A DNA stretch of 64,000 bases from an uncultured Thermoplasmatales archaeon. Its GTDB lineage: Archaea; Thermoplasmatota; E2; DHVEG-1. Below are positions 1 to 19,448 of this stretch, piece by piece. Both the position numbers and the translations under genes were made by a program. Each line of letters opens with the position of its first letter. The first letter of the stretch is position 1. Under the pieces are notes generated by a model, which saw only the letters and a list, made by a program, of their open reading frames with translations, searched no databases and was not told the DNA's origin. The DNA lies in the NCBI GenBank assembly GCA_964391965.1, contig CAYMOC010000001.1:21216-85215 (forward strand), given 5' to 3'.

Positions 1-3000
1 TGATAATGTTGGGGCCTGGTTACCTGAGCTGATAGTAAATGTAAATGTGTCAGATGCAACTTCGAGATTATCATCAGTGACAGTAATTGTTACATCATAA
101 GTTCCCGTCGAATCAAAACTATGAGATGTGGATTGGACGTTATTATTTTTGTTGCTATATGTGTCTGTTTCTCCGTCACCAAAATCAAATACATAGTCAT
201 AAGGAGCGGTTCTATCACTTCCAGATATCGTTGCAGTGAATTCATATGAAACATCTACTGATCCTTCTCCACTTGGACCTGAAAGATCTACTGACAGATC
301 ATAATCTGGATCATTGTATATTGTAACAGTATGATATTTTGATATTTCATAAGAGTTTTGAAGATCCTTAACCCAAAATTCTGCAGTATACTCTCCAGGT
401 TCAACATACACATGTGTCTCTGAGAAAGGCAACTCAGATTCTGATATGACTGTATGAGTACCATCTCCAAAGTAAAGATACATTAAATAATTTTCAGAAC
501 CGCCAGTTACATCACCCTCAAAAGTAACATCATGATGTTCTGTTCCTGTGTCATCACCATCAAATGTTACTGTCAGATCATCATAACTTATTGTAACTGT
601 CGCTGTATCACTTTCAGTGGTTCCTGAGTCATCGGTTACTGTTATTTCTGCGGTATATGTCCCAGTTGAGGTATAAGTATGAGCAGGATCTTTTTCTGTT
701 GAAGTCCCACCATCTCCAAAAGTCCATAGGTAGCTATAAGGTGGATCCCCTCCACTTACTTCAGGATTGAATTGTACTGGCTCTCCAACAACTCCATAAT
801 AATTGTTAGATGGTGAGTTGTATTTTGCATCGACATATAATGGATCATTTCCTCCTAAAACTGTATACCAGTCGTCTTCATTTTGTCCACCGTTGAACGT
901 TATATCCATGCTGTTAACACCGCCTATGATTCCATCATTGTAAACACTTGGGATCCAAACACCAAGGACTTTATTCATTATAACGCTGTGGTAATGTGCA
1001 CCAAAATCATATCCTGTTATTCTAAATCCTAAATTATCATCTAATAAAACTGCTGTTTGGAAGTATTCGATTGTATCTTCATTATCTGTATCCAAATAGA
1101 ATAGTCTTTTTGAATCGGGGTTGTTTTCATGTTCACCTATACCAACTACGCCGACTGAACTCGATAATAATTGTAGATCAATTGTGGCTAGACCATCGAA
1201 ATCAAGTATCAGCCCATTTCTTGAAACAGTGAACTCTAATTCGCCATTATTTAGTTGGTTTATTCCTTGGTTTCTTGAAAAATCTGTTTGCCATTCTACT
1301 GCTTTTCCATAATAAATTGCACCGGAATAATGATACCAATCTGAGTCTTTGCAGAAACGAACGCTTCCATCAAATGAAACACTTCCAGCGAATTCCCATC
1401 CACCTAGTAAAAGATTAAATGACAGATCTGTTAGACCTTGTGAACTGAACCAAACATATTGCTTGGCTGAATCTGAGGCATGATCTGCCCATCCGATTCT
1501 TGCATTATTAGCATTTATTTCAAATGAGACATCTGTTGTTATTTCAAAAGATGTTGAACCATCTTTTGTAACGATTAGATGGAATGTTCCTGCTGTTGAT
1601 TGCATTTGACCGTTTAATTGTATTTCGTCAGCAGAGTTGATATTACTATCTCCAGACATACTATTCCAATCATATTTTTTAGCATAGAAATTATTTAACA
1701 ATTTTATGTTTAATGCATCAAAGTCAACATCTACACTGTCAAAATCAAGCATCAAATCAAGAGTGTTAAGAGTGTTTGTACCAGTACTTTCAATCCATTT
1801 ACATTCAGTGTTTCCTGAATTCTTGTCTCCAACTCCAAACTCTACATAGTTTGCATCTACATCTATAACTGTTAAATCACATCTTATTTGGCTGTCTTTT
1901 ACTCTTAATACTGATAAGCTGAGTCCACCGGTAAAATAGACATGTTTACTATTTGTATAACCTGTTTTTTCATTTAGTTTATAACCAAATTCTGAACCTG
2001 TATCCACAGTTCCTGTAAGCTCTATTGCTTTTACACCAGAGTTTCTTGATAAATCAAATGAACCTGTTATTCCACTTGGACTTGTTATATAAAATTCTTT
2101 AATTCCATTTAGACCTTGACCGTCTAAACATGTTAATTCTGCATCAACATCACCAGCAAACTCTGTTTCAATTATAACTTCTGTTAAAAATCGTATCGAA
2201 CCGCAACTGCCCGCGTAATCCCATTCTGCATGGAAATCAAGATGCTTTAACTTATCATTAGAAGAATATTGTATATTGTATACTTTTATTTCAAATTCAG
2301 AGAGCTCATGTGAACCATAGATAAGATTAAAGATTTCTTCACTGTTTTTCATAACTTTTATGTAATCATATTGTCCATGGACTCCATTAGTTGTATAAAG
2401 ACGCATTAAGGTTGGTTTCATTCCTAATAGATCTCCTTCCCATTCAAAGGTTAAATCGCCATAGAAATTACGTGAGTTTTCGATTCTGAAATTGAAATTT
2501 TTTCCACCAATAGTGGTATCGATTATGAACCAATCCCAGTTAAGAGAATGACTTCTTACAATTGTTGCATATTTTTGAACCCGGTCAACACATGCATAAA
2601 GTGTTCCTGATGTTTCACCATTTTTTAGATTGAAAGTCGTGTCAAACAGAGCCATATTAAATTCAAATAAGCTCTTTGTAGTTCCATGATTCCAATCAAG
2701 CTCAATTTTATTGAAGCTAAAAGTGTTGAGATTTACACCGGTTGCACTGAAATCTAGACGTGTGTAACTGCTTTTACTTTTCATTCTAGTGACATCGAAG
2801 TATTTTTTCAAACCAAAACCAAATACTGAAACACTAACTTCTAATCCCTGTACAAGTTTTTCAGTAGAACCCTGATGTTGATAAATTAAATCAAGGTTTA
2901 CAACGCTTCCTGAAAGACTTGCTGATAAATCAAAAAATGTTGAACCAGATCCAATCTTTTCCCAGTAATCACGAATTATTTGAACCTCTAGACTTACAGA

Positions 3001-6000
3001 AGGTATTACTACTCCAAGAGTGAAATTATCTATAACTGTTTTACCTGAATGAGCATGATTGAAATTAAAATCAAGTGAACCAGATGACATACTGTTTATT
3101 ACTAAAGCAAAACCAGTAGATGTACTGCCAGAGTTCTGGAAAGTAAAATCTCCATCCATATACACTCTGTTTTGATTTGGACCAGTTGCACCGGCTGAAA
3201 CTTTTAGACTTGTTACACTAGCGCTACTAATAGAACCTGAGAACGCGAATTTTCCACTAAGATCATCAACGGAAACCATTGTACCATCTACTTGTAATAA
3301 AATTGCGCCGCTATTTGTAACAGATCTTACTCGACTAGATGAAACTGCAAGGCCACCAGTGATTCCTGAAACTGTTGCACTAACAGCAAAATCAAGATTT
3401 GTTATCTCCATGATTTTTTGACTAGTATGTTGGTTTTCTAATACTATATCAAATGTTTTTTCATCAAAATCTGCAAATGCATAAATCCTTGTTGATCTGC
3501 CAGTGTTTTGATCCATATGAAACTCGCCAGCAAGCGATACATCAAAAGCACCGGTTCCTACACCAACAGCACCATCTATGTAGAAATTATCCAAAGTAAT
3601 TTTAGCGTTACTTTCAAGTGTGAAACAAATATCACCAGAAATGTCATCAAGTGTTATTCCCTGGCCTTGTAAACTGTTTATAATGCCCATAATGTTCACA
3701 CTAGTTATTTCTAATAACAATGATGAGCCGCTGTCTTTATGGAAATAATCAACACCAGTTGCTGCATGAAGAACACCAGCGACATAAACTTCTAAATCAA
3801 GATGCTCGATAGTTATTTGTGGAGAATTCTCTGTTTCAAATTTCACGGTTAACTCATCGTCTTCTGTATTATAATCAAAATAGAATGTTCTTTGACCGGA
3901 TCCTTGATCTATTGTTCTTTGGAATTTATCACAGCTAAGATCTACACTGAAAACTGTTTCAATACCTACTGAAAACAAAAAGTCTTCCATAAGAAAATCA
4001 AGGTTTCGGTTTACATCTCTATCGATTGTAACCGAGATATATTCTTCTTTAATCCATTCGATAGTTGTTTCTCCATAGGTTTGACCGGTTGAATCCTTGG
4101 ATATATCACCTTGTATTACAAAATTAAAATCACCAGACAATGGATAAAGTTGGTTGTCTTTATCAACATTTAATTCTAAATCTATCTCTAGATCTATATC
4201 AGATGTGGATTGTTTTGTTCTCTCCCAACTAATTGTTCCATCATCTTGACTTATGTCAAACGTGAAATTTGCACCAGCATTATTTGATTTGATTTTCTGA
4301 ATATCAAGAGCAAAGATATCTCTGACTATGAAAGTAGCTGATTGTATATCAACTAATAATGTGCCTTCAGCATTAAAAACAAAATCATCTGTTCCAAGTC
4401 CATTCCATGAAAGATTAAATATACCGTCACCTGAGGAAAACGTAAATATTCCTGAAACTTGGAAAACAAGATCATCACCTTCATATTTGGAGAAATCTAC
4501 ATCCATATATGCTGATCCAGAAGGCCCGACTCTTATCCAACCCTGTGAAAAATCTTGAGCAATATCCCATGTAACATTTTGTACTGTAACATTTAAACCA
4601 AAAGTATACGTTTTTGGACCTATCAAATGCAGTGTTGGTTTATTCCAACTGAACTCATTAGCTCTGATATATAATCCAAATAATTCTAACTGAGATGAAA
4701 GAACTATTTCTCCAGCTAATGATATTCCGCCTCCATCATTTTGGCTGTTAAATTGTAAAAATAACCCACCATCTTTAGGAGTAGTAGTATCATAAACTAG
4801 TTTATCTATATGAATAGTTGAATCGACATCATCAAAACCTTCAATTGGTAAAAATGAAAGATCTAAATTATTAGCTTCAATATGTATATCTTCTATAGTG
4901 AGTTCATTTCCAATTTTACTACGAGTTATATCAACAGAGTTATCTTCAAAATCAAGTTCTACTTCAAAACTAGTGGGTTCATTAGAACTTTTAATTTCTA
5001 AACTACTCCATGAAAAACTACCTTCAAATGGTTCATCATTTCCTCCTTCTTCAGGTAATTTTTCAATTGTAAGATCAACATTAAAATCTCCTATGTTGAC
5101 ATACGTAGATTTTTCTTTATGTATTTCAAATTTGAAAGTTCGATCTCCGAAATCAAAGTTTTTAACAACAACAAGAACGCCTGATCCTGAGGATATTAAC
5201 TCCATTTTAGTTGGAAGAACATTTGAATAATATTCTCCATCGTAACAACGTGCTACAATAAGATAAATACCAGCTGTTATTTCTGATGTATCCCAATCAT
5301 AATTCCAACTACTCCAGTCACTGTTATGATTGGTAACATTCACCCATGAATATTCCGTGTTAGTTCCAGCGAAAGTATTTTGTGGCAACATAGCTAGTTG
5401 AACTTGTTCTATAGATCTACCAGAATAGCCTTTGAAAGCCTGACCTTGGACGTTTACAACATCTTCAACAACTGCATGCAATGAAGGGTTATCTATACGT
5501 ACAGACGGAGGATTAAAAGATGGACCGTTATCAACATTGACATAAATAATATCTGTATCTTCATAGCCCATACTATCTAAGCATCTTGCCTCAATAGGAT
5601 AATAACCATTACAAACTGTTTTAGAATCCCAATCAAAATCCCAAACTTCTTTACCCGACGCATCTTGCCATTCACCATTATTTATTCTTATTTGAACAAG
5701 ACTTATAGGTCTTCCTTGTGTAGCAGCAGTTGCTGTACCATTAATTTTTACGATATCTGAAACATCTGAACCATCAAAGGGACCTGTAATATTTATGACA
5801 GGGTTTTCAACCTCGTCTTCAACATTTAAAGTAATAATATCAGGTGGAGAATGAAAGTTTCCATCAAAACTTCTAGCTCTAACTAAATAAGTACCAGGTT
5901 CAAGATCTGAAGCATCCCAATTATAAGTCCAGGAACTTGTACCAGATGCTGAAGCCCAACCTTCATCATTTCCAATTGATAATTCAACTGATTCAACAGG

Positions 6001-8709
6001 GTGACTGCTTGAACCAGGTGAAGCTGAACCTTTTATCGAAATAACTCCTTTAACAGTTGACCCATCAGATGGTGAATTAATTTGAACAGAAGGTATTTGA
6101 ACCTGTCCTTTTACAACAGTTACTGAATCTATTACAGAGTAACGATATCCATCATAACTACGAGCTTCTATTATATGCTCGCCATTTGAAACAGATGAAG
6201 TATCCCAACTATAATCCCAGTAACTATCTCCATTGGCTTCCATCCAACTTCCTTCATCAACACGAACTTCAACTTTTTCAACAAGCCTAGTATAGATTCC
6301 AGAGTACGCTGTACCCTCAATTGACACCATTCCATCAACTACATCTCCATCTGAAGGTATAATTATTCTAACTGTTGGAACAACATGATTTGCAACTATA
6401 ACAGATAAAACATCTAATGATGAATAACGACTTCCATCATAACTACGAGCCTTAATGATATGTTCACCATCATCTAGTACTGTGGTATCCCAACTGTAAC
6501 TCCATTTCTCGGTTCCAGTGACCTTTTTCCATCCATTGTTATCAATCATCACTTCGACTTTATCAATAGAACTTCCACCTTCACCAGGAGCTGCAGTTCC
6601 AGTTATTGTAACAATATCAGAAACAACTGGAGTTTCAAGTTCATCAGCATTAGGATATGTTATATTAACAGTTGGAACAATTACTTCTTTTATTACTATA
6701 TCAGAGTCGATACTATCTATTGTGAACTCACAATTTTTCGATACAAATATTCTTACAGCAGCCGCATCAACCCTATCAATTATAGATTGCCTTAATGGCA
6801 GAATTGGAGTGAAAGAAACAGTCAACTCGCCACTATCTGAATATGTTTTTGAAAAATCAATATTTCTAACGTCAAGATCAAAATCAACAACTCTATTACC
6901 TAATAAACCACTTAAACCGGTCATATATATTGGTATTTCATTTGCTTCAACAACTAATTTAGATATTGAGAAATCCCAGCCGTTGCTAATACTAACTCCG
7001 ATTCCAGCTTCTGCATCATTTATTGGACCTCTTAGAATGCCGCCTACATCAAGAATAAATGGTTGATCGCTACTTCTCGATATATGCCCATCTAATGAAA
7101 GATAAAGATAGTCGGATGTTACATCTATGAATATGTCTCTTTCTATGTCTAGATTATTTTTTATTTCAAAGTAGCCTGTTAAGAGTTTAAAAACAATGGT
7201 AACATCTAATATTCCATCTGATTCTATCGAAAATTCTGTTGTGCAATCTCCTCCAAGCATTCCTATTGTTTCAAAATAACCATTCAAAGATAGTCTTTTA
7301 TCCGCATATACATGGATTTTGTTTTTTCTAATAATGTTTAAATCATAGTTTATTGTACCGCTTGTTGGAAGATCAGAAAGATAAAGGCATTCTTTTGGAT
7401 TAAATAAATCATCAAACCAACCGATTTGACTTATAGATTCATCCCCTGAATCAAGTTCAATCCATCCTTTCATTATTGACAAACCCAATGAAAAAGAGAA
7501 TTGTTTTGGTAGATACTTAATATAAAAATAATCTAAATCCGAGAAAACATCAATGTTTCCTGCTAATTGTGAGACTAAACCATTATATCTATAAAAAATG
7601 ACATTAACGTTTTCTTTACTTATGCGCTCATAAGATATATCAATTTCAGGGCTGATAATTTTTATATTACTTTTAAAGACTAATTCTGTTTTCTTTGGAA
7701 GATTCTCTATATAAAAACCAAGACGCACAATTTCAAAATCTTCAGTTTCTACATTCCACTGTACATCCACACTCGTTTGTTCATCAACTTGAACTGATAA
7801 TTCTCTATTATTAAAACCAAGAATGTCATTGAGTTTTACAGTACCTTTCACAAATTTTTCAAAATTAAAAGCAAGTTCTCCCTCAAAAAGCCCCAGAACC
7901 AAAGTTAACCTATCATTTTTACTATCCCCTGGATTTATTTCAAAAATATGAGTTGGTTTTTTTACAGGATTTAACAGATTAGGAGCGAGTTTATATGTAA
8001 CAGTGCAACTTGATGGTATCTGTTCACCTTGAAGAGATCTGTATCCAAAATCTACACTTTTACCATCAAGATTACTTAAAAGAAAACCAGGAAAATTCAG
8101 TCTTGCATAAGCCTCTAAAAAATCTTTATTATTAATACTGCTACCACTTAGAAGTTCTATATTCAGGTTAAAATTAATAGTAAAAGACAGGGTTTTAAAA
8201 TCAAAACCAGGCAACACTGTCACACGAGCAGAAACATCATCTCCACCCGTTCCATCAACATCAACCTTAACAGTTTGAAACAAACCTAAACCAGTACTTG
8301 TTTCAACACCAGAATAATTAGTATGAAAAGTAAGCAGATTATCTAAAAAACCAAGTAATCTATGATCTCTGGAACCATCTAACAAACGAAAAGAACTATC
8401 ACTTTCATTATCATCATTTTTATCTCTATTAAAAAAATCTTTGATTTTTTCTTTAGCAGAAGAAAACCTCTGACCAAGCCGGGTATCCTTAAAACCACCA
8501 TTCAACAAACCAGAATTTTCTTTAGTGTCTGTTTGGTTATTTTCATCTAAATTTTCAGTATCTTCTTCTGATTTATCTAAAATAGAAGCATTAACAGTTG
8601 ATGTCGCCACAGACAGCAACATCATTAGGACTGCTAAAATTGATACGATTTTAATTGATTTTTTCCAATAGTTTTTTATTGAAACCTTATCATCTATTAT
8701 CTTTTTCAT
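1..8709 (-). CDS. Giant secreted surface protein, paralog B. It is partial, with the ATG at 8709 and the reading frame leaving the window at position 1, so more than 2900 aa lie in the window. It has a signal peptide, ~95-aa Ig-like repeats, a PKD domain near 640-800 and beta-rich modules.
   Basis: The ORF track shows no stop-delimited minus-strand ORF in 1-8700, consistent with one frame running off the edge. My reverse-complement reading of 8650-8709 gives MKKIIDDKVSIKNYWKK followed by a hydrophobic signal segment. The N-terminal ~250 aa are nearly identical to the gene at 8953-19152. The PKD motif YLWTFGDGGTSTEKDPAHTYTSTGTYTAEITVTDDSG was read from the reverse complement of ~640-800. Confidence 0.7.
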   Translation of the reverse strand, partial: MKKIIDDKVSIKNYWKKSIKIVSILAVLMMLLSVATSTVNASILDKSEEDTENLDENNQTDTKENSGLLNGGFKDTRLGQRFSSAKEKIKDFFNRDKNDDNESDSSFRLLDGSRDHRLLGFLDNLLTFHTNYSGVETSTGLGLFQTVKVDVDGTGGDDVSARVTVLPGFDFKTLSFTINFNLNIELLSGSSINNKDFLEAYARLNFPGFLLSNLDGKSVDFGYRSLQGEQIPSSCTVTYKLAPNLLNPVKKPTHIFEINPGDSKNDRLTLVLGLFEGELAFNFEKFVKGTVKLNDILGFNNRELSVQVDEQTSVDVQWNVETEDFEIVRLGFYIENLPKKTELVFKSNIKIISPEIDISYERISKENVNVIFYRYNGLVSQLAGNIDVFSDLDYFYIKYLPKQFSFSLGLSIMKGWIELDSGDESISQIGWFDDLFNPKECLYLSDLPTSGTINYDLNIIRKNKIHVYADKRLSLNGYFETIGMLGGDCTTEFSIESDGILDVTIVFKLLTGYFEIKNNLDIERDIFIDVTSDYLYLSLDGHISRSSDQPFILDVGGILRGPINDAEAGIGVSISNGWDFSISKLVVEANEIPIYMTGLSGLLGNRVVDFDLDVRNIDFSKTYSDSGELTVSFTPILPLRQSIIDRVDAAAVRIFVSKNCEFTIDSIDSDIVIKEVIVPTVNITYPNADELETPVVSDIVTITGTAAPGEGGSSIDKVEVMIDNNGWKKVTGTEKWSYSWDTTVLDDGEHIIKARSYDGSRYSSLDVLSVIVANHVVPTVRIIIPSDGDVVDGMVSIEGTAYSGIYTRLVEKVEVRVDEGSWMEANGDSYWDYSWDTSSVSNGEHIIEARSYDGYRYSVIDSVTVVKGQVQIPSVQINSPSDGSTVKGVISIKGSASPGSSSHPVESVELSIGNDEGWASASGTSSWTYNWDASDLEPGTYLVRARSFDGNFHSPPDIITLNVEDEVENPVINITGPFDGSDVSDIVKINGTATAATQGRPISLVQIRINNGEWQDASGKEVWDFDWDSKTVCNGYYPIEARCLDSMGYEDTDIIYVNVDNGPSFNPPSVRIDNPSLHAVVEDVVNVQGQAFKGYSGRSIEQVQLAMLPQNTFAGTNTEYSWVNVTNHNSDWSSWNYDWDTSEITAGIYLIVARCYDGEYYSNVLPTKMELISSGSGVLVVVKNFDFGDRTFKFEIHKEKSTYVNIGDFNVDLTIEKLPEEGGNDEPFEGSFSWSSLEIKSSNEPTSFEVELDFEDNSVDITRSKIGNELTIEDIHIEANNLDLSFLPIEGFDDVDSTIHIDKLVYDTTTPKDGGLFLQFNSQNDGGGISLAGEIVLSSQLELFGLYIRANEFSWNKPTLHLIGPKTYTFGLNVTVQNVTWDIAQDFSQGWIRVGPSGSAYMDVDFSKYEGDDLVFQVSGIFTFSSGDGIFNLSWNGLGTDDFVFNAEGTLLVDIQSATFIVRDIFALDIQKIKSNNAGANFTFDISQDDGTISWERTKQSTSDIDLEIDLELNVDKDNQLYPLSGDFNFVIQGDISKDSTGQTYGETTIEWIKEEYISVTIDRDVNRNLDFLMEDFLFSVGIETVFSVDLSCDKFQRTIDQGSGQRTFYFDYNTEDDELTVKFETENSPQITIEHLDLEVYVAGVLHAATGVDYFHKDSGSSLLLEITSVNIMGIINSLQGQGITLDDISGDICFTLESNAKITLDNFYIDGAVGVGTGAFDVSLAGEFHMDQNTGRSTRIYAFADFDEKTFDIVLENQHTSQKIMEITNLDFAVSATVSGITGGLAVSSSRVRSVTNSGAILLQVDGTMVSVDDLSGKFAFSGSISSASVTSLKVSAGATGPNQNRVYMDGDFTFQNSGSTSTGFALVINSMSSGSLDFNFNHAHSGKTVIDNFTLGVVIPSVSLEVQIIRDYWEKIGSGSTFFDLSASLSGSVVNLDLIYQHQGSTEKLVQGLEVSVSVFGFGLKKYFDVTRMKSKSSYTRLDFSATGVNLNTFSFNKIELDWNHGTTKSLFEFNMALFDTTFNLKNGETSGTLYACVDRVQKYATIVRSHSLNWDWFIIDTTIGGKNFNFRIENSRNFYGDLTFEWEGDLLGMKPTLMRLYTTNGVHGQYDYIKVMKNSEEIFNLIYGSHELSEFEIKVYNIQYSSNDKLKHLDFHAEWDYAGSCGSIRFLTEVIIETEFAGDVDAELTCLDGQGLNGIKEFYITSPSGITGSFDLSRNSGVKAIELTGTVDTGSEFGYKLNEKTGYTNSKHVYFTGGLSLSVLRVKDSQIRCDLTVIDVDANYVEFGVGDKNSGNTECKWIESTGTNTLNTLDLMLDFDSVDVDFDALNIKLLNNFYAKKYDWNSMSGDSNINSADEIQLNGQMQSTAGTFHLIVTKDGSTSFEITTDVSFEINANNARIGWADHASDSAKQYVWFSSQGLTDLSFNLLLGGWEFAGSVSFDGSVRFCKDSDWYHYSGAIYYGKAVEWQTDFSRNQGINQLNNGELEFTVSRNGLILDFDGLATIDLQLLSSSVGVVGIGEHENNPDSKRLFYLDTDNEDTIEYFQTAVLLDDNLGFRITGYDFGAHYHSVIMNKVLGVWIPSVYNDGIIGGVNSMDITFNGGQNEDDWYTVLGGNDPLYVDAKYNSPSNNYYGVVGEPVQFNPEVSGGDPPYSYLWTFGDGGTSTEKDPAHTYTSTGTYTAEITVTDDSGTTESDTATVTISYDDLTVTFDGDDTGTEHHDVTFEGDVTGGSENYLMYLYFGDGTHTVISESELPFSETHVYVEPGEYTAEFWVKDLQNSYEISKYHTVTIYNDPDYDLSVDLSGPSGEGSVDVSYEFTATISGSDRTAPYDYVFDFGDGETDTYSNKNNNVQSTSHSFDSTGTYDVTITVTDDNLEVASDTFTFTISSGNQAPTLS
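8150..8520. repeat. Dispersed ~370-bp repeat, copy 1 of 2. It encodes the conserved N-terminal region of the giant proteins and is ~97% identical to 18600-18965.
   Basis: Direct comparison of the two DNA stretches shows only scattered single-base differences. Confidence 0.8.
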
Positions 8710-8952
8710 CTATAAATCCTCCAAAGTATTGGATTAGATTTTTTTTCTCCCTCTATTATTTACTAATCTTTATTAATTTGTAGTTCAAAGTATAAATAGT
8801 TTATTATATATATGTTTTCATTATAATAAATACGAGGTGGATTTTTTCCATTGTCAAAATGAATAAATCTAAGGAGTATTTTAATATTTAAACTAATGAA
8901 TATATAAATGACATTTGTATTTAATTAAATATTTAAGTCATTAATTTTTTAG

Positions 8953-11900: not shown

Positions 11901-14900
11901 AAACATCACCGATAGGATCCTGGGAGCCATGCTCTTTAACATAACCTCTTACTCTACCAACTGCTTTTTCAACAATAAAATAGATTTCATCATCAACATA
12001 ACCAGATTTTTCAACAGTGACTAAACAATCATTTTCATGAAACGGGTTATCATCACTTACCTCATGAGCGACAAAGTAGACACTGCCAGAGGAATCTGTA
12101 TAACCGGTATCCTCTCCAATTAAAACACCATCATCATATGACTGATAAGTAACAAAGGCATCTTCAACTGGATCTCCAGAAAAACTATCAGTTACATAAA
12201 TTTCAAAATCATCACCTTCAAATAAATCTTCACCTTGATCAACACCATCGTAAATTAATTCTATGTTAAATTCGGATAATACTGCAACATTAACTGTTGT
12301 AGAATCATTATCCTTTTTATGTAAAATGGTGTCTTTTTCTCTTACTTGTAATTTAAGTGTATATGTGCCTTCTGTATCATATATATGATCAACCGTGGGA
12401 GAGTCTAACCATCCTGTATCCCAAAATACATCTAAAGGTCCAGTGTAATCAAAATCCCATCTATATTGTAAAACATCCCCATCAGGATCTGAACTATTTG
12501 ATGCATCAAAAGTAACTGTTTCCCCAACATCTGCAGAGTAAGGTCCACCTATATCAGCATTTGGTTTTTGATTACCATATGGCCAAATTTGATCCCATGA
12601 AGCCCCGCCATCATTTGTTGCCTCAATTACAGGCTGTTCTTCTCCACTACCTATTTCTCCACCGTGATCAAAGTATGGAGGAATCCTTATGAAATCCCAA
12701 TGTATCCATTTTCCATTTGCCCAAATGTTACCGACATCAAGAATTTTAATTGCATCATTTGCACCATACCAAAATTCAAAACTAATATGTTGGATAAATG
12801 AATTAGGTGTAGTATCCATATAGAATTGTTTTATGTCGCTACTTCCACCATCTAGATCAAATGCAATAGAACAGTCACCGCTTCCTAGTGTTCTTGAACC
12901 AATCATGTGGAAATTTCCAACATCTAATGTTGTTGTTCCATCAAATCCATTATTGCTTTGGAAGTAAAACGATTTTCCAGTACCCTGGCCGTCATGCCAG
13001 ATCATATCAAAATATGATCTTAGATCTCCATTCCAATCTACTGAGCCTGCAATATCAACATTTTGTGCTGAAAAGGAAAAACCAGATACAGTACTAATAC
13101 TATCACTTGATTGTATAAGATATATTAAGTTTGAATCGCTATCAAGGCCGCCTCTAGCAATGCGTGCATTATAACCAGTTAAAGTACCTGAAATGTCAAC
13201 GACTTCTCCATTCAATGTAATCCTACAAACAGTAACGGTTATTGAACCGTCAAAATAAAAATCTTTACTCCAATCAAGACCTTCATGGAAAGTATGCCAA
13301 TCTCGATATTCTAAGCTGGAACCCGAGGACATTTCTACATTTAGATCAAGAATGGTTTGAGAGTTAAGTTGAATAGTTGATAGATACCCATCAAAACCAG
13401 CTGAGGTGGTTGCTTTTACACATTTAGCATTACCATCCATATAATCCCATTCAATAGTTATATCACTGTTTGGAGAAATTCCAAAATCAAAAGCTGAAAA
13501 AATTACATCATTATTGACTTTTAGTTGTATTATTGAGCCTTGGAAACCAGATTGAGAGTGTATAGAAAGAGTACTACCCTTTTTCCATTCAATTGTAAAA
13601 TCTCCAGCAGAAATAGATGGTATGCTAAGATAAACATGATTTCCATTTAATTCGATTTCAATATTTATCTCTAAATTCAGACCTGAATTGCTTGTAACGG
13701 TTACACTATCCAAAGTACCTTCATCGTCTTTCTCCCAATATGCACCTAGATCTCCTACTAATTGTCCATTTAATGAAAGTGAAAATGAAAATACATCTTG
13801 TATTGTTATTTCCATTATTCCAACAGATGCATCAAGATTGCTTATAAAATGGAATCCATCAATTTTGGAGTCGCTGTAACTTATTTCATCAATATCAATG
13901 GAACCACTGATACTTATCGTTCCAACATCCATGTAAAATACTTCTTCATTGTTAACATTAATTTTGATATAGCCAAGTGTAAATTGTCCTCCGCCAAAAA
14001 TGAATTTTAGGCTGTCTGGCTTAAGGTTTTTCAAAGCCCCAGTCCATTCCATTCTAATTGAGTTGTCTTCAAACTGCGCTACTCCTAAATCAACATCTAT
14101 TTTTGTATTAGTCTGTAAATCATTGAATTCAATTAAATCAACGCCAAGTACTTCTCCATCTATACCTATTTCTAAGTATTTGCTGCTTGTACTAGCTGCA
14201 AAATTTAGACTTCCTTGAAGTGTTATTTCCTGAAGAGCCGCTATATTCCAACGGTCATAAAAAGTTAATTCCAAACCAGTAATTTTTACAGTTGCTCCAC
14301 CGTTTAGATTTCCAGCTACGTAAAGGCTACCAGGCGTATATGTAAAGTATATAAAACCTTGAACACCGATATCTAGAGATGCTGTTACTATTATATCCTT
14401 AGAATTAGGTTCTACAAAACCAGTTTCAATTAAGTTAATTACACTATTTATAAATGAGCTAAGATCATATGAATCTGTAATGTTATTTATGTAGTTGCCA
14501 ATTGTATTAAGTGTATTACTACAAAATGTATCGATTTGTTCTTCAGTAAATAAAGTTAATCCTTTTGTCATGGATACATCTGCTAATACTGCTCCACTGA
14601 GGTATCCACTTACGCTATTAACTGAAAAACCTCCGTTATCATTACCGATTCCAAGTGTTGCAGATCCAGAAATTGCTCCAGAAAGTTGTAGAGTTCCACC
14701 CACATATAATGTACCAAAAGCAGGCGTACTTATTAATCCTCCTCCAGATATGTGAAGATAGCCTCCAGCATAACCGGAAACTTGTATAACTTGGTCTTCT
14801 CCTGCGATATTCAGATTTCCATATATGTATAGAGCACTAAGATATACAGAAATTTGAGGAGATTTGATAGATAAACCCACAATATGAATTCTACCAGATA

Positions 14901-17900
14901 CCCCGATAGCCCCTGAAAAACCCTCTATTTGAAATTCTTCACCAAAAACAATAGAACCTGTTGCTGATGCTTCAATTGGTAAATCAATTTCTTTACAAGA
15001 AGCAGCTAAACCTGGAGTAACAAGAGATACATCCTCAATACCAAAATCAAGTATAGCTTGTGCATCAATAGTAAGAACATTGTTTTCATTCTTATCAAAT
15101 AGGAATTCAATAAAACCAGCAGCACCAACTGACAATGAACAATAACCCAAAGAACCTGAAAAATTTGGTATAGATCCAACTAATTTTTCAATTTTAATAA
15201 TAGTAATATCTTCAGTTTCAGCATCCAATCTTAATTTAACTTTGTTTTTTGTTAAGAAAATTGTTGGATGAATATCACCATTTATTTCAATATTAGACCA
15301 GGTAACAAATATATTTTTATCAGGATAATTGAAAAGAAAATCTTTTAATGAAATATAGCCTGATAAATCAAGGTCAGCATTACCGGCACCATCTACGATT
15401 TCAAAAGAAGGTGCACCTGTCTCATTAAATTTGACTTTTACACCTAATAAACCACCATCAACATTAAAACCATAATCTAAATCTACGTTTAATAAACCTT
15501 TAATTGTCATAGAAGGGATAAGATTCCCAATTTTTTCTATATCAAAATCAAAATCTATACTTCCTTTTCCGTCACCATCAAGGTTTAAAAAGGCTAAAAC
15601 TTCTCCAGCCCAGATCTTACCCCCTCCAGAGTTGATCTGTTGCAAATTGGCTTCAAATTTACCCTCAAAAGAAAGGTTAGATATCTTTATTACATCTCTT
15701 ATGTGTAACTTAAGATTATCAACTATTATACTGGCATCGCCATCAATGGTGAAATATTTTGTTTCATCTAAAGTTTCCCAGGAGAAAACAAGGCCTTCAT
15801 TTTCACCTTGTAAGTAGAAAACACCAGATAATTCAAAAAGTAGTTCATCGCTTCCCTCTTTTTTTATGTTTAAATCTACAGAAATATAACCCTCACCGCT
15901 GATATTTATCCAACCCCACGACATATCAGGTGCAATTTCCCATGTAACATTTCTTATTGTTACATTCAACTCAAAGGTAAATTCTGTAAATCCCACAAGG
16001 TGAAGTTCCGGTTTTGCATAACTTAAATTGTTAAAGATAAAATAGAAACCAAAAAGTTCCAAATGACTTGAAAGTTCAATTTTTCCGCTTACTGATAAAC
16101 TGCCATTGTTATCATCTAAAAACGGATTGATCTCAAGATAGAAACCGCTGTTTGTAGCAGCAGTATTATCCCAAACAATCCTGTCTACATGTATCCTTGA
16201 ATCTACATTTTTTAAAGCAGGTAAAACAGAAGATAAATTAAGATTAGTTATTTCAAAATGAACATCCTTTAATACGATTTTGCTACCTGTACCGGATCTG
16301 CTTGTACTAACTGAATGATCGTTTTTATCTAAAACAAAAGAAAACTTTGAAGGAGAAGTTGAGCTTGTTATTTCAAGTGATTTCCATGAAAATTTTACTT
16401 CCATTGGATCTGGAGAATTATCATTTTTTTGTAGGAATGTTTTTTTATAATTAATATTAAGATTTGATATATTTACATATGTTGATTTTTCTTTTTCGAT
16501 TTCAAAAATTATTGAATTTTCTATAATATCTACGTTTTTAACTATCAAAGTTATGGATGCATTGTCAGAATAGTTTACACCATCATAACAACGTGCTTTG
16601 ACTATGACTCGGCCTATAGGTTTAGATGAGGAATCCCAGTTATAACTCCAACTTGTTGTACCGCTAAGATTCATCCAAGGTTCATCTGCTATTTGGATTT
16701 GAACAAGTTCAACTGGTCGACCGGATTCTCCTGGAGTTGTTGAACCGCTTATGGTGACTACACCTGAAACAGGTGGTATTACTGGATTTATTGATATAGT
16801 TGGTTTATCAATAATTTCATCATCGTCGTCATCGTCAGATCCGCCGGTTCCATTTATTTTTAGAGTTACGCTGTCTAAAGGTGAATAATATAATCCATCA
16901 TAACTACGAGCTTTTATAACATAATTTCCACCAGGATAATTTGTTGTATCCCATTCGATCATCCAATTATCCCAAGATGTACCTATCTTACTTGCTTTTT
17001 TCCAAGGGTTTTGACCGATTTTTACTTCGACATAATCTACAGAGTGTCCTTTTTGACCCGGGCTGCTTGTACCTTGAATTGTTATTGTGTTTTCAACAAC
17101 AGTTCCCTCAGTAGGAGCTGTAATATTCACATTTGGAACAGCTATCTCTGTTAAATCTAAATCAAAATCTAAACTATCAACTGTTAAACTGCATTCTTTT
17201 GAGACATATGTTTTTACTATTACTGAATCAAGTAGTTCATCCAATCCCAAGTCCCTTAATGGGAAAATTGGCATAAATGAAATAATGCCTTCTCTTGATG
17301 ATGAAGTAGTTCTTTCAAAAATTAGATTTTCTATACTAAATTCCATATCCATCATACTATGGCCTGGTATCATGTTTCCAGAATCCATGATATACACAGG
17401 TGCATCGTCTAACTCAATGTCAAGATTATGTAGAGTGAAACCTCCTCCGTTTTTAATCTCAAAGCCTAAACCAAGATCTATATCATCGACTATTATACCA
17501 TTTACAAAACCATTTAAGTCTAGGACAAAAGGTTCATTTGAGCTCTCTATATGGCCATTTCCTGAAGCATATAGAAAATCTGATTCGAAATTAAAATACG
17601 CTTCTAACTCTATAGGGTCTTTATTATCTATTTCAAATCTTCCTTTTAATAAATTAAAATATATAGTTATATCTAGATTACTTTGTGATTTTATTTGTAA
17701 TTCAAAAGAACTTTCGCTATCTAAAATACTAATTTCTGATCCGAAGGCGTTCAAAGAAAGGCCTTCTGTGTCTGAATAAAAACTGATTTCTGTTTCTCTT
17801 AACAATCCTATTCTGAACTGAAAATCTATACGGTTTGTTGAAGGAAGATCTGATAAATAAACTCCTATTTTTGGTTTAAACAAATCGTCATATAAACCAA

Positions 17901-19152
17901 TTTGGCTTATTGATTCTCCACCTGTGTTTAACTCAAGATATCCTTTTAACATAAAAGATGAAAAAATAAAAGAAACCTCTGAGGGGAGATATTTTACAAA
18001 AAAATAATTAAATTTTCTTTCATTAAATAATTCTTTATAAAACAGAATGTTAACGTTTTGACTGCTTGTTTTTTTATAACCTAATTCAATTTTTTCACCA
18101 GGCAATATTGATATTTTTGTTTTCCAGGCAAATTCTACATTTTTGGGGAGATCTTCAATGTAAAAGCCGACATTGACTGGTTTGCCATTTTTACTTATTC
18201 TTTCATGATGAAATTTTACATTTGTTTTTTCGTCTGTATTTATTGAAAATTCTCGATCATAAGGACCTATTGGGTCTTGTATTTTAATTGTTGATTTTAC
18301 ATAAGAATCATAGGTTGCATAAAAACTCCAACCTAGTGCATCACAAAATAAAGATAATTTATCGTCATCGTTACTACCAGGGTTTATTTGAAAAGAATGT
18401 CCTGGTTTTTTTGCGGGGTTTAATAGATTAGGTGCAAGTTTATATGTTACAGTGCAGCTACTTGGGATTTTTTCTTTGTTTTCAGAGATATATCCAAATT
18501 TTACATTTTGATCTGTTAGGTTTTTTATTAAAAAACCTGGGAAATTTAACTGAGCATATGCTCTTAGATATGCATTTTGATTTATACTGTTTCCACTTAG
18601 AAGTTCTATATTTAGATTAAAATTAATAGTAAAAGACAGGGTTTTAAAATCAAAACCAGGCAATACCATTACACGAGCAGAAACATCATCACCACCCGTT
18701 CCATCAACATCTACCTTAACAGTTTGAAACAAACCTAAACCAGTACTTGTTTCAACACCAGAATAATTAGTATGAAAAGTAAGCAGATCATCTAAAAAAC
18801 CAAGTAATCTATGATCTCTAGAACCATCTAACAAACGAAAAGAACTATCACTTTCATTATCATCATTTTTATTTCTATTAAAAAAATCTTTGATTTTTTC
18901 TTTAGCAGAAGAAAGTCTCTGACCAAGCCGGGTATCCTTAAAACCACCATTCAACAAACCAGAATTGTCTTGATCTTCTGAAGAGTTTGTATCTTCGATA
19001 TTTTCTTCTTTTTTAGTTTCAAATGTTGTTGCGTTTGCTGAAGAAGCTATTGTTGAAAATAGTAGGATAGTTATTATTGTTAGAACCAAAAGCTTTGTTA
19101 AATATATTTTTGAAGAACCCTGGCAGGTATTCTTCTTTAATAATTTTTGCAT
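8953..19152 (-). CDS. Giant secreted surface protein, paralog A, 3399 aa. It has a signal peptide, Ig-like repeats, a PKD domain, FN3-like domains, two internal Hint domains and a C-terminal Hint domain.
   Basis: This is a single 10.2 kb ORF in the track. The N-terminus has a hydrophobic segment ending ASSANA. A PKD motif YRWDFDYTG...GTYTLKLQV is present. The FN3-like pattern C.VWFEYGLT...KCT.YH.RA.ASN.AG recurs. Three Hint domains were identified (see the Hint-domain features at 8968-9363, 9892-10287 and 10876-11271 for the motif evidence). Confidence 0.85.
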   Translation of the reverse strand: MQKLLKKNTCQGSSKIYLTKLLVLTIITILLFSTIASSANATTFETKKEENIEDTNSSEDQDNSGLLNGGFKDTRLGQRLSSAKEKIKDFFNRNKNDDNESDSSFRLLDGSRDHRLLGFLDDLLTFHTNYSGVETSTGLGLFQTVKVDVDGTGGDDVSARVMVLPGFDFKTLSFTINFNLNIELLSGNSINQNAYLRAYAQLNFPGFLIKNLTDQNVKFGYISENKEKIPSSCTVTYKLAPNLLNPAKKPGHSFQINPGSNDDDKLSLFCDALGWSFYATYDSYVKSTIKIQDPIGPYDREFSINTDEKTNVKFHHERISKNGKPVNVGFYIEDLPKNVEFAWKTKISILPGEKIELGYKKTSSQNVNILFYKELFNERKFNYFFVKYLPSEVSFIFSSFMLKGYLELNTGGESISQIGLYDDLFKPKIGVYLSDLPSTNRIDFQFRIGLLRETEISFYSDTEGLSLNAFGSEISILDSESSFELQIKSQSNLDITIYFNLLKGRFEIDNKDPIELEAYFNFESDFLYASGNGHIESSNEPFVLDLNGFVNGIIVDDIDLGLGFEIKNGGGFTLHNLDIELDDAPVYIMDSGNMIPGHSMMDMEFSIENLIFERTTSSSREGIISFMPIFPLRDLGLDELLDSVIVKTYVSKECSLTVDSLDFDLDLTEIAVPNVNITAPTEGTVVENTITIQGTSSPGQKGHSVDYVEVKIGQNPWKKASKIGTSWDNWMIEWDTTNYPGGNYVIKARSYDGLYYSPLDSVTLKINGTGGSDDDDDDEIIDKPTISINPVIPPVSGVVTISGSTTPGESGRPVELVQIQIADEPWMNLSGTTSWSYNWDSSSKPIGRVIVKARCYDGVNYSDNASITLIVKNVDIIENSIIFEIEKEKSTYVNISNLNINYKKTFLQKNDNSPDPMEVKFSWKSLEITSSTSPSKFSFVLDKNDHSVSTSRSGTGSKIVLKDVHFEITNLNLSSVLPALKNVDSRIHVDRIVWDNTAATNSGFYLEINPFLDDNNGSLSVSGKIELSSHLELFGFYFIFNNLSYAKPELHLVGFTEFTFELNVTIRNVTWEIAPDMSWGWINISGEGYISVDLNIKKEGSDELLFELSGVFYLQGENEGLVFSWETLDETKYFTIDGDASIIVDNLKLHIRDVIKISNLSFEGKFEANLQQINSGGGKIWAGEVLAFLNLDGDGKGSIDFDFDIEKIGNLIPSMTIKGLLNVDLDYGFNVDGGLLGVKVKFNETGAPSFEIVDGAGNADLDLSGYISLKDFLFNYPDKNIFVTWSNIEINGDIHPTIFLTKNKVKLRLDAETEDITIIKIEKLVGSIPNFSGSLGYCSLSVGAAGFIEFLFDKNENNVLTIDAQAILDFGIEDVSLVTPGLAASCKEIDLPIEASATGSIVFGEEFQIEGFSGAIGVSGRIHIVGLSIKSPQISVYLSALYIYGNLNIAGEDQVIQVSGYAGGYLHISGGGLISTPAFGTLYVGGTLQLSGAISGSATLGIGNDNGGFSVNSVSGYLSGAVLADVSMTKGLTLFTEEQIDTFCSNTLNTIGNYINNITDSYDLSSFINSVINLIETGFVEPNSKDIIVTASLDIGVQGFIYFTYTPGSLYVAGNLNGGATVKITGLELTFYDRWNIAALQEITLQGSLNFAASTSSKYLEIGIDGEVLGVDLIEFNDLQTNTKIDVDLGVAQFEDNSIRMEWTGALKNLKPDSLKFIFGGGQFTLGYIKINVNNEEVFYMDVGTISISGSIDIDEISYSDSKIDGFHFISNLDASVGIMEITIQDVFSFSLSLNGQLVGDLGAYWEKDDEGTLDSVTVTSNSGLNLEINIEIELNGNHVYLSIPSISAGDFTIEWKKGSTLSIHSQSGFQGSIIQLKVNNDVIFSAFDFGISPNSDITIEWDYMDGNAKCVKATTSAGFDGYLSTIQLNSQTILDLNVEMSSGSSLEYRDWHTFHEGLDWSKDFYFDGSITVTVCRITLNGEVVDISGTLTGYNARIARGGLDSDSNLIYLIQSSDSISTVSGFSFSAQNVDIAGSVDWNGDLRSYFDMIWHDGQGTGKSFYFQSNNGFDGTTTLDVGNFHMIGSRTLGSGDCSIAFDLDGGSSDIKQFYMDTTPNSFIQHISFEFWYGANDAIKILDVGNIWANGKWIHWDFIRIPPYFDHGGEIGSGEEQPVIEATNDGGASWDQIWPYGNQKPNADIGGPYSADVGETVTFDASNSSDPDGDVLQYRWDFDYTGPLDVFWDTGWLDSPTVDHIYDTEGTYTLKLQVREKDTILHKKDNDSTTVNVAVLSEFNIELIYDGVDQGEDLFEGDDFEIYVTDSFSGDPVEDAFVTYQSYDDGVLIGEDTGYTDSSGSVYFVAHEVSDDNPFHENDCLVTVEKSGYVDDEIYFIVEKAVGRVRGYVKEHGSQDPIGDVLVVATNQDTSEEFSTYTSDGTGGHLVGFYDLYLPAGTYDIEASKTGYANGNLYDISVENGDNTLLDTIYLVSAPTVSTLNPGNIEQTTAYLRGNLGSMGGDNSCEVWFEYGLTENYGSSTDPVTVYSTGNFYKQIMGLTKCTAYHYRACASNNAGTSHGNDFSFNTDADPPVIDSVSHTSVTDSSAYLTGKLLDDGGEASTCWLILEQESCFVAGTLISMADGSLKSIEDIQVGDSVKSYDESSGSMVDSVVGHVFVHDAVEMGDYYLVINNRLRVTPDHPLFVNGDWVDADSVVVGDSLLDVSGESIEVLSVDRVFEPVVTYNLEVEGTHTYFADGVLVHNKPGPIQYNCGDHYDPYTFSHTFYNLQPSTPYKWTASADNSGGSSNTDWMYFTTDSDLDKPTLSTQNAASVTQNSAFLRGYLSDMGGANSCNVWFEYGLTTSYGYSTSPISVSSTGYFNTQVTGLSKCTTYHFRAWASNDAGSNHGNDEDFTTDSDKPVIDSVSHTSVTDSSAYLTGKLLDDGGEASTCWLILEQESCFVAGTLISMADGSLKSIEDIQVGDSVKSYDESSGSMVDSVVGHVFVHDAVEMGDYYLVINNRLRVTPDHPLFVNGDWVDADSVVVGDSLLDVSGESIEVLSVDRVFEPVVTYNLEVEGTHTYFADGVLVHNKPGPIQYNCGDHYDPYTFSHTFYNLQPSTPYKWTASADNSGGSSNTDWMYFTTDSDGSPPYFTTDIDTKTVSEQLAISLFNVDAYDADGDSLYFRVKYQYTYYNLDSYYDVIEDDSQVTISAKQYDSNSVRFKVEPKVDSGDQDEYYDIIVHVTDEQGDWYDDYEDFTIHISDDGTCLLSGSKITMAGNAKKNIEDVKIGDMVKSYDDKTGEITTSVVTSIHHHPKEEMTDYYMIINNILKITPNHRIYVNEEWTPAGKVKIDDYLQDIEGEKQRIFSIERIYEKVPTYNFEVNTTHSYYAEELLVHNGGTK
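8968..9363 (-). other. C-terminal Hint (Hedgehog/intein-like) domain of giant protein A. It runs from CLLSGSKIT to ELLVHN and is followed only by GGTK-stop.
   Basis: The Cys codon is at 9361-9363 and the Asn codon at 8968-8970. Block B TPNH and block G HN are present. There is no homing-endonuclease insert. Confidence 0.7.
9892..10287 (-). other. Internal Hint domain, copy 2 (C-proximal). It is inserted within an FN3-like domain of giant protein A.
   Basis: The domain runs CFVAGTLISMADGS...RVTPDHPLFV...GVLVHN. Its Cys is at 10285-10287 and its HN at 9892-9897. The residue after the HN is Lys (KPGP), so a canonical extein +1 nucleophile is absent. Confidence 0.7.
10876..11271 (-). other. Internal Hint domain, copy 1. 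Its amino-acid sequence is identical to copy 2.
   Basis: The DNA and protein match 9892-10287 exactly, offset by 984 bp. Confidence 0.7.
18600..18965. repeat. Dispersed repeat, copy 2. It is the counterpart of 8150-8520.
   Basis: Near-identical DNA. Confidence 0.8.
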
Positions 19153-19448
19153 ATCATTCCCTCTTGCAATTTAAAATTAGGCCCCAATTATTAATATTTG
19201 TTATTTATTATATAAATAGTTTCGCATTTTTATATATTATATTTAATAAATATATCCAAAAATTGGAAGAAAATGATTATAAAATTGTAAAAAAATACTA
19301 CAAAAATCTTTTAAAATATAAATATAAAAATTATTCATAAAATTTAAATAGCCCCCAATGCATAGTGATTTAGGTATTATTATACTAAAATTTGCGTCAC
19401 CGGCGGTTTAGCATAGATAAATACCGTTTGAGGGGCAGTGATAAATAT

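Follow-up and report, generated by a model that had tools for sequence, protein, structure and literature searches.

To our knowledge, work on Hint domains of the bacterial intein-like (BIL) type has been limited to a handful of bacterial proteins. Type A of these domains (BIL-A) is defined by a terminal His-Asn pair, the lack of a nucleophile at the following +1 position and occurrence in the hypervariable portions of secreted proteins that are not conserved, and its members are capable of both N- and C-terminal cleavage (PMC4031507, PMC7765530). Reviews describe BIL domains as spread among bacterial proteins, and post-translational variability in hypervariable secreted proteins has been proposed as their role in bacteria (PMC7765530). 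Known examples include the BIL domain of Clostridium thermocellum (PDB 2LWY) and those of FhaB-like and RTX-type secreted bacterial proteins (Amitai 2003 and Dassa 2004, as cited in PMC4031507 and PMC7765530). Another described system of interest is that of the adhesin-like proteins (ALPs) of the gut methanogens Methanobrevibacter and Methanosphaera (PMC11532034, bioRxiv 10.64898/2026.08.03.742440). Here, we describe a tandem pair of giant genes, termed A and B, in 64,000 nucleotides of DNA from an uncultured Thermoplasmatales archaeon (contig CAYMOC010000001.1 of assembly GCA_964391965.1, positions 21,216 to 85,215 of the forward strand); this whole stretch is called the window, and coordinates refer to it unless another contig is named. 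The products of A and B are probably giant adhesin-like surface proteins, with a variable tip that would be autoprocessed by Hint domains. Both components are of kinds already known, namely, a giant surface protein with Ig-like modules and BIL domains in hypervariable secreted proteins; unusual in gene A are a Hint nested within a fibronectin type III (FN3)-like domain, a conserved Hint at the very C-terminus and an N-terminal module that resembles no solved structure.

Gene A (8953..19152, minus strand) is complete, with an ATG start and its sole stop codon at its end, and encodes a predicted secreted protein of 3399 amino acids (aa) identical to P0121. Of gene B (1..8709, minus strand), the window contains the 5′ 2903 codons, and its edge cuts off the remainder. 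Thus, the two giant same-strand tandem paralogs and the 243-bp gap between them (spacer 8710..8952) that the first-pass annotation had reported are both there, and the possibility it had raised, that B might be a pseudogene, can be set aside, since the frame of B, which opens with the ATG at 8709, runs as far as the window edge free of stops and frameshifts. In the remaining two minus-strand frames of 1-8709, no stop-free run exceeds 64 codons, and a chance origin of open reading frames (ORFs) of this length is excluded because about 7% of codons would be expected to be stops at 33% GC. Moreover, the 3148-aa protein P0122, a full-length relative of B with 74% identity, matches all of the 2903 residues and runs on for about 245 more; B is therefore truncated by the window and not by mutation, and its full length is expected to be about 3150 aa. 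The two proteins are 47.6% identical between aa 20-876 of A and aa 20-872 of B, and fainter similarity reaches further in. On the minus strand, a AACTATTTATA box lies at 8791-8801, within the spacer and 82 nt upstream of the ATG of B, and again at 19211-19221, 59 nt upstream of the ATG of A, and a purine-rich GGAGG or GAGGGA directly precedes the start codon of each gene (GGAGG at B), which suggests that A and B may have separate, similar promoters. The only match in the genome collection is another “uncultured Thermoplasmatales archaeon” metagenome-assembled genome (MAG), CAYLLH010000030.1, with the same neighbour genes, which encodes an ortholog of A (hereafter O) of 3541 aa that is 83% identical to A over aa 1-2483. 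Since a B-like gene (B′) begins 271 nt downstream of the syntenic O, the tandem pair is conserved in at least two related genomes.

Hint domains, the most informative feature of the pair, are confined to copy A, as had been noticed, without interpretation, at first pass: there are three in A, and none was found by Pfam in the 2903 aa of B or in P0122. Three stretches of A match the Pfam model PT-HINT (E 5.8e-44), and the TIGR models of intein N- and C-termini match too. Hint 1 (aa 2628-2759; 10876..11271, minus strand) and Hint 2 (aa 2956-3087; 9892..10287, minus strand), which are identical in sequence, start with the nucleophiles Cys2628 and Cys2956, carry the block-B TxxH motif as TPDH and end in VHN, with Lys2760 and Lys3088 at +1. 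Hint 3 (aa 3264-3395; 8968..9363, minus strand), which reads ...DDGT/CLLSG..TPNH..LLVHN/GGTK-stop, starts with Cys3264, has TPNH as its block-B motif and also ends in VHN, with Gly3396 at +1 as the first residue of a tail of four; it is 45% identical to Hint 1. Each of the three is 132 aa long, with neither a homing endonuclease nor a remnant of one. Among solved structures, the best match of Hint 1 is the “bacterial intein-like domain” 2LWY (E 2e-13, query residues 2-132 aligned to residues 5-138 of the chain), followed by the Hint domains in 6Y75 and 6TMM (about 3e-10) and the UmbC toxin scaffold 8W20 (3e-8), canonical inteins being matched at E values of 3e-4 or above. By sequence, the three Hints are type-A BIL domains with all catalytic residues intact. 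They resemble described BIL-A domains in matching 2LWY end to end, in having Cys1, TxxH and His-Asn with no +1 nucleophile and no endonuclease, and in lying in a hypervariable part of a non-conserved secreted protein. However, they differ from them in that the host is an archaeon, two of them are nested within a folded FN3-like domain and not placed between modules, Hint 3 forms the very end of the protein with its four-residue tail, and Lys predominates at +1 in their clade.

This predominance emerges from a search with the last 910 aa of A, which retrieved 411 proteins; among the best 120 of these, 62 carry a total of 91 full-length Hints. Cys1 is present in 90 of the 91 and the terminal HN in 84, Lys is the most frequent +1 residue (35), and Cys, Ser or Thr occupies this position in just 11; in addition, there are 16 back-to-back pairs, and 16 Hints are separated from the C-terminus by a tail of no more than 10 aa. 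The Hint-bearing matches with a name come from MAGs of Thermoplasmatota, Nanoarchaeota and Methanobacteriota and from a few bacteria. Among the retrieved proteins, the archaeal P0022, P0043, P0041 and P0009, one of which is a Nanoarchaeota MAG protein, contain arrays of three or four back-to-back Hints with junctions such as ...VHNKG|CFLPGT..., and proteins of the P0082 type, with prepilin-type N-termini, end in a Hint.

The first two Hints of A interrupt a folded domain. When the Hint is excised in silico, the joined FN3-like flanks align over their full length to two intact neighbouring domains (E 2e-8 and 5e-8), and the insertion lies in the loop after the strand “..CWLILEQ”. Just one other, independent case of nesting was found among 103 Hints, in P0007, at the same loop of the same domain type and with Lys at +1. 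As for Hint 3, its nearest relatives are likewise terminal Hints with tails of 3-4 residues, in P0128 (73% identity), P0024 (58%) and P0179 (53%), and three further members of the protein family to which A belongs end in a Hint. P0128, itself a family member, is 35% identical to A in the N-terminal module and 73% identical in the terminal Hint; this stronger conservation of the terminal Hint, compared with the remainder of the protein, speaks for a function and against decay.

The nested Hints belong to a compositionally distinct cassette of A (aa 2490-3143; 9724..11685, minus strand), in which a unit of a plain FN3-like domain followed by an FN3-like domain with a Hint is present in two copies. 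Identity between the plain domains is about 60%, and the two Hint-bearing modules, the first comprising Hint 1 (aa 2588-2815; 10708..11391, minus strand) and the second Hint 2 (aa 2916-3143; 9724..10407, minus strand), are 100% identical over 684 nt, which indicates a very recent conversion or duplication. At four-fold degenerate sites, the cassette uses T at a frequency of 0.74 and A at 0.11, compared with 0.45 and 0.42 in the rest of A and in B (chi-square p = 3e-12); for Val, 29 GTT and 1 GTA codons are found in aa 2490-2815, compared with 57 and 56 in aa 1-2290. Codon usage reverts sharply to native at the module boundary aa 3143/3144, so that Hint 3 and the domain preceding it have native usage, as does the Hint of O. 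Immediately upstream of this cassette, at aa 2483, the colinearity between A and O stops, and beyond the breakpoint O has a different series of modules, with a single Hint between an FN3-like domain and a C-terminal domain of about 130 aa. O has a T-biased block of its own right after the breakpoint (aa 2478-2800; L001 17432-18400), and the blocks of A and O are alike in their frequencies of T (0.72-0.74) and A (0.11-0.15).

A foreign origin of the cassette was considered on account of this bias and dropped, since two small native ORFs share the preference for T-ending codons. These are the ORFs at 30256-30663 (plus strand; A 0.09, T 0.70), which has a weak zinc-ribbon match, and at 55246-55791 (plus strand; A 0.21, T 0.71). 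The bias is present in a minority of native genes and is, therefore, no proof of foreign origin. In addition, a metagenome scan for a donor or a second copy of the Hint-bearing FN3-like module gave a best match of 56% confined to the Hint, with no convincing extension into the FN3 flanks. The deviant codon usage is nonetheless evidence that the cassette has had a history different from that of the rest of the gene, and the comparison with O suggests that the position around aa 2480 is a recombination hot spot that receives cassettes of different history. The variation in domain content between strains that was to be looked for is thus present, as A and its 83%-identical ortholog are unlike in arrangement after aa ~2483, and the diversification in gene A sits in this C-terminal cassette.

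The opposite holds at the 5′ end. Residues 59-192 of A (18578..18976, minus strand) and 61-194 of B (8129..8527, minus strand) are 93% identical in amino acids and 94.9% identical in nucleotides (alignment columns 61-190), ungapped nucleotide identity along the tract being 90-95%, and in its flanks the amino acid identity between A and B is 21-65% and the third-codon identity 0.26-0.49. Within the tract, third-codon identity is 0.91 between A and B and 0.815 between A and O. Over the 84 nt that are comparable in both genomes, A and B differ at 2 positions, O and B′ at 7, A and O at 7, and B and B′ at 12, with closer agreement of the paralogs within a genome than of the orthologs, and by manual count three sites are the same within each genome and different between genomes, which is the signature of concerted evolution. 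These observations point to a recent gene conversion between A and B as the origin of the tract. The first-pass annotation had placed a near-identical N-terminal region of about 250 aa here; the place was right but the length generous, since the truly near-identical part comprises some 130 aa, followed by a stretch of 65% identity as far as about aa 270 and by one of some 40% further on. Its proposal that the 5′ module recombines stands, third-codon identity being 91% in the tract, 44-49% in its surroundings and 81.5% between orthologs. However, the further suggestion that this recombination serves to diversify a surface antigen or adhesin does not, because the tract is kept alike in A and B and the variable part is the 3′ cassette; recombination here homogenises the 5′ module and does not diversify it. 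The homogenised N-terminal end would then be expected to touch a partner common to both proteins, or the cell.

Between these two ends, Pfam recognizes a modest set of modules. In A, these are two bacterial Ig-like Big_7 domains (aa ~673-870; 16543..17136; the first matched by Pfam at 673-748, the second copy deduced from internal alignments of A and B), a PKD domain (aa 2194-2287; 12292..12573; PKD_4, E 2e-14) and a CarboxypepD_reg-like domain (aa 2401-2483; 11704..11952), the last part that is colinear with O; in B, there is an array of at least four Big_7 domains (aa ~770-1170; 5200..6402; E 6.7e-33, four stretches) and three PKD domains that reach the window edge (aa ~2630-2903; 1..822; PKD_4, E 2.7e-31, three stretches), all on the minus strand. 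Together with the FN3-like and Hint domains, these were the outcome of the domain annotation that had been proposed as a check. The Ig-like, PKD and FN3-like modules foreseen at first pass are therefore present, but the description of A and B as beta-sandwich proteins fits only about a quarter of either, which is what the Big_7, PKD, CarboxypepD_reg-like and FN3-like modules cover, the rest being an unannotated all-beta body. Segment-wise scans left some 2000 aa of A (1-670 and 870-2190) and some 2200 aa of B without a Pfam or NCBIfam match, and the stretch between the cassette and Hint 3 in A (aa 3144-3263) has only a weak Pfam match. The body of A (aa 871-2190; 12583..16542, minus strand) shows no internal repeats by self-BLAST; however, an iterated profile of it matches 63 family proteins several times per protein, so that it consists of large, very divergent repeats.

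In both A and B, the signal peptide is followed directly by an N-terminal beta module of about 500 aa, which in A spans approximately aa 124-670 (17143..18783, minus strand) and defines the family. Word-index searches gave no homologs, whether the query was the N-terminal 880 aa or a profile of the module built from 9 sequences, whereas an exhaustive HMMER search with aa 40-670 of A against 1.84 billion representatives did, yielding a family of 86 clusters, A among them at 100% identity, in which the match is always N-terminal. Complete members are 1500-3600 aa long, and a hydrophobic segment is present at the N-terminus of nearly all long members and at the C-terminus of none. Structure prediction by AlphaFold2 (AF2) succeeded in part: the N-terminal module is modelled as all-beta with a pLDDT of 71, confidently for about aa 124-550, and the PDB contains no real structural relative of the module; the model of the body is unusable. 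A further recurrent element is a domain of about 130 aa without a Pfam match, ending like “...LYEFDF.KV”, which closes at least 12 Hint-less family members and also occurs internally. It was seen at the C-termini of P0122, P0124, P0136, P0141, P0143, P0145, P0171, O and others; in O, its copies lie at aa 2589-2723 and 3408-3541 (L001 17765-18169 and 20222-20626), and it stands immediately after the Hint in O and in P0052. Gene A is without this domain, which could be the attachment or recognition domain of the family. The methanogen ALPs resemble A and B in their very large size, their richness in repeats and their place among archaeal surface proteins, in having signal peptides and Ig-like modules, in forming multi-copy paralog families and in their presumed role in cell-cell contact. 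However, ALPs are described via known adhesin-type repeats, whereas the N-terminal module and body of A and B match no Pfam model, and no sequence relationship to ALPs was found in a comparison made through Pfam only.

Secretion of both proteins by way of a Sec-type signal peptide is predicted from their N-termini, where a Lys-rich n-region and an 18-residue hydrophobic core (Kyte-Doolittle 2.3) are followed by a cleavage motif after residue 41, A-N-A|T in A (aa 1-41, ...ASSANA/T; 19030..19152, minus strand) and V-N-A|S in B (aa 1-41, ...TSTVNA/S; 8587..8709, minus strand). The Thr/Ser/Asn/Asp/Gly-rich composition reported at first pass was recovered in A (S 10.2%, D 8.9%, G 8.8%, T 6.9%, N 6.4%), and both proteins are strongly acidic, with 495 Asp and Glu residues against 213 Lys and Arg in A. 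Apart from the signal peptide, no hydrophobic segment was found in A or in P0122, the C-terminal hydrophobicity reaching at most 0.1-0.2.

A and B each comprise four parts: a predicted signal peptide, the N-terminal beta module that is specific to the family, a body exceeding 1300 aa of large, divergent repeats, and a C-terminal cassette of shuffled Ig-like modules (Big_7, PKD, CarboxypepD_reg-like and FN3-like). Taken as surface proteins, they would be arranged as follows. The N-terminal ~130 mature residues, held alike by gene conversion, would constitute the constant end, and the C-terminal cassette, rearranged completely between close strains, the variable, outward-facing one. At each Hint of A, in line with the known pathway of BIL-A domains, an N-S acyl shift at Cys1 would produce a thioester, the terminal Asn would then cyclise with cleavage of the C-terminal junction, and the thioester would be resolved either by the freed amine, resulting in splicing, or by water or another nucleophile, resulting in cleavage. 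For the nested Hints, this would mean that the halves of the FN3-like domain are re-joined, or that the domain is nicked or the chain severed; the terminal Hint 3 would remove itself via its C-terminal thioester and leave a processed C-terminus. One gene could thus give rise to several post-translationally processed forms of the distal tip. Our confidence in any single outcome at a given Hint is much lower than that in the general reading of A and B. Type-A BIL domains are also able to splice, with lower efficiency, through attack on the N-terminal thioester by the amine that Asn cyclisation sets free (PMC4031507, PMC7765530). In a reading that we regard as unlikely, the nested Hints may cleave without ligating and the nicked domain may serve as a force-sensitive release point, and the predominant Lys at +1 may itself act as the nucleophile. 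Cleavage without ligation would be analogous to that in the SEA and GAIN domains of mucins and adhesion G-protein-coupled receptors, which cleave themselves inside a folded extracellular beta domain with the fragments held together non-covalently, although their fold and chemistry are unrelated and they have no homology to the Hint-bearing FN3-like module.

The terminal Hint, like its 53-73%-identical counterparts at the ends of other giant archaeal proteins, might also be a ligation device, whose thioester is captured by a foreign amine or hydroxyl to form a covalent anchor or cross-link; the acceptor could be a membrane lipid head group, a molecule on the surface of a partner cell or the N-terminus of another subunit. 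We regard this as unlikely. It would recall the Hedgehog/Hog proteins, in which the Hint is also C-terminal and an N-S acyl shift makes a thioester at the end of the secreted signalling or adhesive part. However, Hog has a sterol-recognition region after its Hint and no terminal His-Asn, whereas Hint 3 keeps His-Asn and is followed by GGTK alone.

Several observations weigh against the reading of A and B as adhesin-like proteins with an autoprocessed tip. Sequon depletion is unusual for archaeal surface glycoproteins, and N-x-S/T sequons are below the shuffled expectation in both proteins, with 24 in A (35.9±5.4 expected) and 13 in B (32.5±4.9 expected). No C-terminal transmembrane segment, PGF-CTERM-like end or lipobox was found in A or in P0122, the signal peptides were called by eye from sequence and hydrophobicity and not by a predictor, and the AF2 model of the body (aa 870-1620), while all-beta, has a pLDDT of just 48. 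The exact 684-nt repeat is seen in one assembly, where misassembly could account for the presence of two copies in place of one, and O has a single Hint at a position other than those of A. Finally, published BIL-A domains mostly undergo cleavage rather than splicing (PMC4031507), and the re-joining of the FN3-like halves is consequently the less certain branch of the mechanism.

Other explanations account for some of the same features. Copy A might be a polymorphic toxin or contact-dependent effector, in which pre-toxin Hints release a C-terminal toxin into a competitor. With CdiA, Rhs and UmbC, A indeed has in common giant size, secretion, a variable C-terminus and Hints of the same Pfam family, for which autoproteolytic release is typical; PT-HINT is its best Pfam match, and among its solved relatives is UmbC of the Streptomyces umbrella toxin particle (8W20). 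Nevertheless, no toxin domain follows the Hints of A: after Hints 1 and 2 comes the second half of an FN3-like domain, and after Hint 3 GGTK and the stop codon, and the ~130-aa beta domain that follows the Hint of O also ends at least 12 Hint-less members and occurs internally, and is therefore no variable toxin tip. Moreover, the gene downstream of A is the paralog B and not a small immunity gene, and the window contains neither an immunity gene nor partner genes of type V, VI or VII secretion systems (T5SS, T6SS, T7SS) or of the Umb system, all of which makes a toxin very improbable. A selfish origin of the Hints, as ordinary inteins or mini-inteins that are precisely spliced out and have no host function, would agree with the matches to the TIGR intein models, the intact Cys1, TxxH and HN, the interruption of a folded domain by Hints 1 and 2 and the recent copying of the Hint-bearing module within the gene. 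However, canonical inteins occupy conserved sites of conserved proteins, usually of replication and repair, and often contain a homing endonuclease, whereas the host is here a non-conserved, hypervariable secreted protein and the 132-aa Hints have neither an endonuclease nor a remnant of one. The similarity to the BIL structure (2e-13) also far exceeds that to inteins (3e-4 or above), the terminal Hint has no real C-extein to ligate, and with Lys or Gly at +1 the branched intermediate of canonical splicing cannot form (PMC4031507). An intein in the ordinary sense therefore seems unlikely.

The tail of A that bears the Hints might also be decaying or chimeric, as an assembly artefact or an in-frame junk insertion, with only the first ~2480 aa of importance. 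Such an origin would explain the exact repeat in a single assembly, the deviant codon usage of the cassette, the lack of a close donor or second copy in the metagenome scan (56% at best, Hint only) and the different tail of O. Yet the frame stays open through 1.96 kb of deviant composition, all three Hints are catalytically intact, Hint 3 and the domain preceding it have native codon usage, the 73% identity of Hint 3 to the terminal Hint of a distant member indicates purifying selection, and the tail of O contains an intact Hint too; we consider a meaningless tail improbable. Lastly, A and B could be structural proteins of an S-layer or cell envelope and not adhesins, an association that the first-pass annotation had also entertained. 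This would agree with their very large size, acidity, all-beta make-up and signal peptides, and the homogenised N-terminal module could be an anchoring or lattice element common to both paralogs. However, the family is tiny and patchy (86 clusters), a C-terminal membrane anchor is lacking, N-glycosylation sequons are depleted and not enriched, and a lattice protein would not be expected to have so variable a tail from one close strain to another. In addition, PMC12448462 reports that cultured Thermoplasmatales are without a paracrystalline S-layer. An S-layer role thus has no support and appears quite improbable, if less so than that of a toxin, and the adhesin-like reading is the one we favour.

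The rest of the window is an ordinary archaeal chromosome, with genes for archaeal FEN-1, a prenyltransferase of the digeranylgeranylglyceryl-phosphate (DGGGP) synthase type, PurP, PurF, RpiA, RNA 2′-phosphotransferase and an HAE3-type RND transporter, and three tRNAs. At 7-12 kb from gene A lie a Peptidase_C25 (gingipain/PorU-like) gene with a PKD domain (30765-32960, plus strand) and a gene for a DUF11/isopeptide-forming-domain protein (25793-28435, plus strand). A 342-aa protein encoded at 46784-47812 (plus strand), with a NosD-like (beta-helix) match (E 1.7e-32), is possibly secreted or exposed at the surface and is unrelated to A and B. On their own contigs, three of four other family members also stand among other very large secreted proteins: two have multi-kilobase Peptidase_C25 neighbours (L002 1-9826 and 19953-21326; L004 14976-19901), and the third is accompanied by a CLIPPER/DUF11 giant, a Peptidase_C1 and another giant of more than 2300 aa; the fourth (L005) has only small neighbours. 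The recurrent association with C25 and DUF11 genes may mark a neighbourhood of surface-protein processing or attachment. No same-family tandem pair was found near these four members, and since the large neighbours tested belong to other families, the tandem pair is specific to the lineage described here.

The locus and about 60 Hint-bearing relatives show that BIL-type Hints with intact catalytic residues are common among the large secreted proteins encoded in MAGs of Thermoplasmatota, Nanoarchaeota and other archaea. They occur there in three arrangements, namely, inside a folded domain, as back-to-back arrays and as the very end of the protein. The practical importance of the locus would be modest unless covalent ligation proves true; if it does, prokaryotes would have an equivalent of the cholesteroylation of Hedgehog, and this in a lineage with no other visible anchor on its proteins. 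The gene pair itself combines two opposite regimes, with concerted evolution at the 5′ end and cassette shuffling at the 3′ end. The locus thus offers a compact test case for whether a Hint with Lys at +1 can re-join a split FN3-like domain, for the role of a terminal Hint and for how giant surface proteins may be processed and held by archaea from a lineage reported to have no paracrystalline S-layer.

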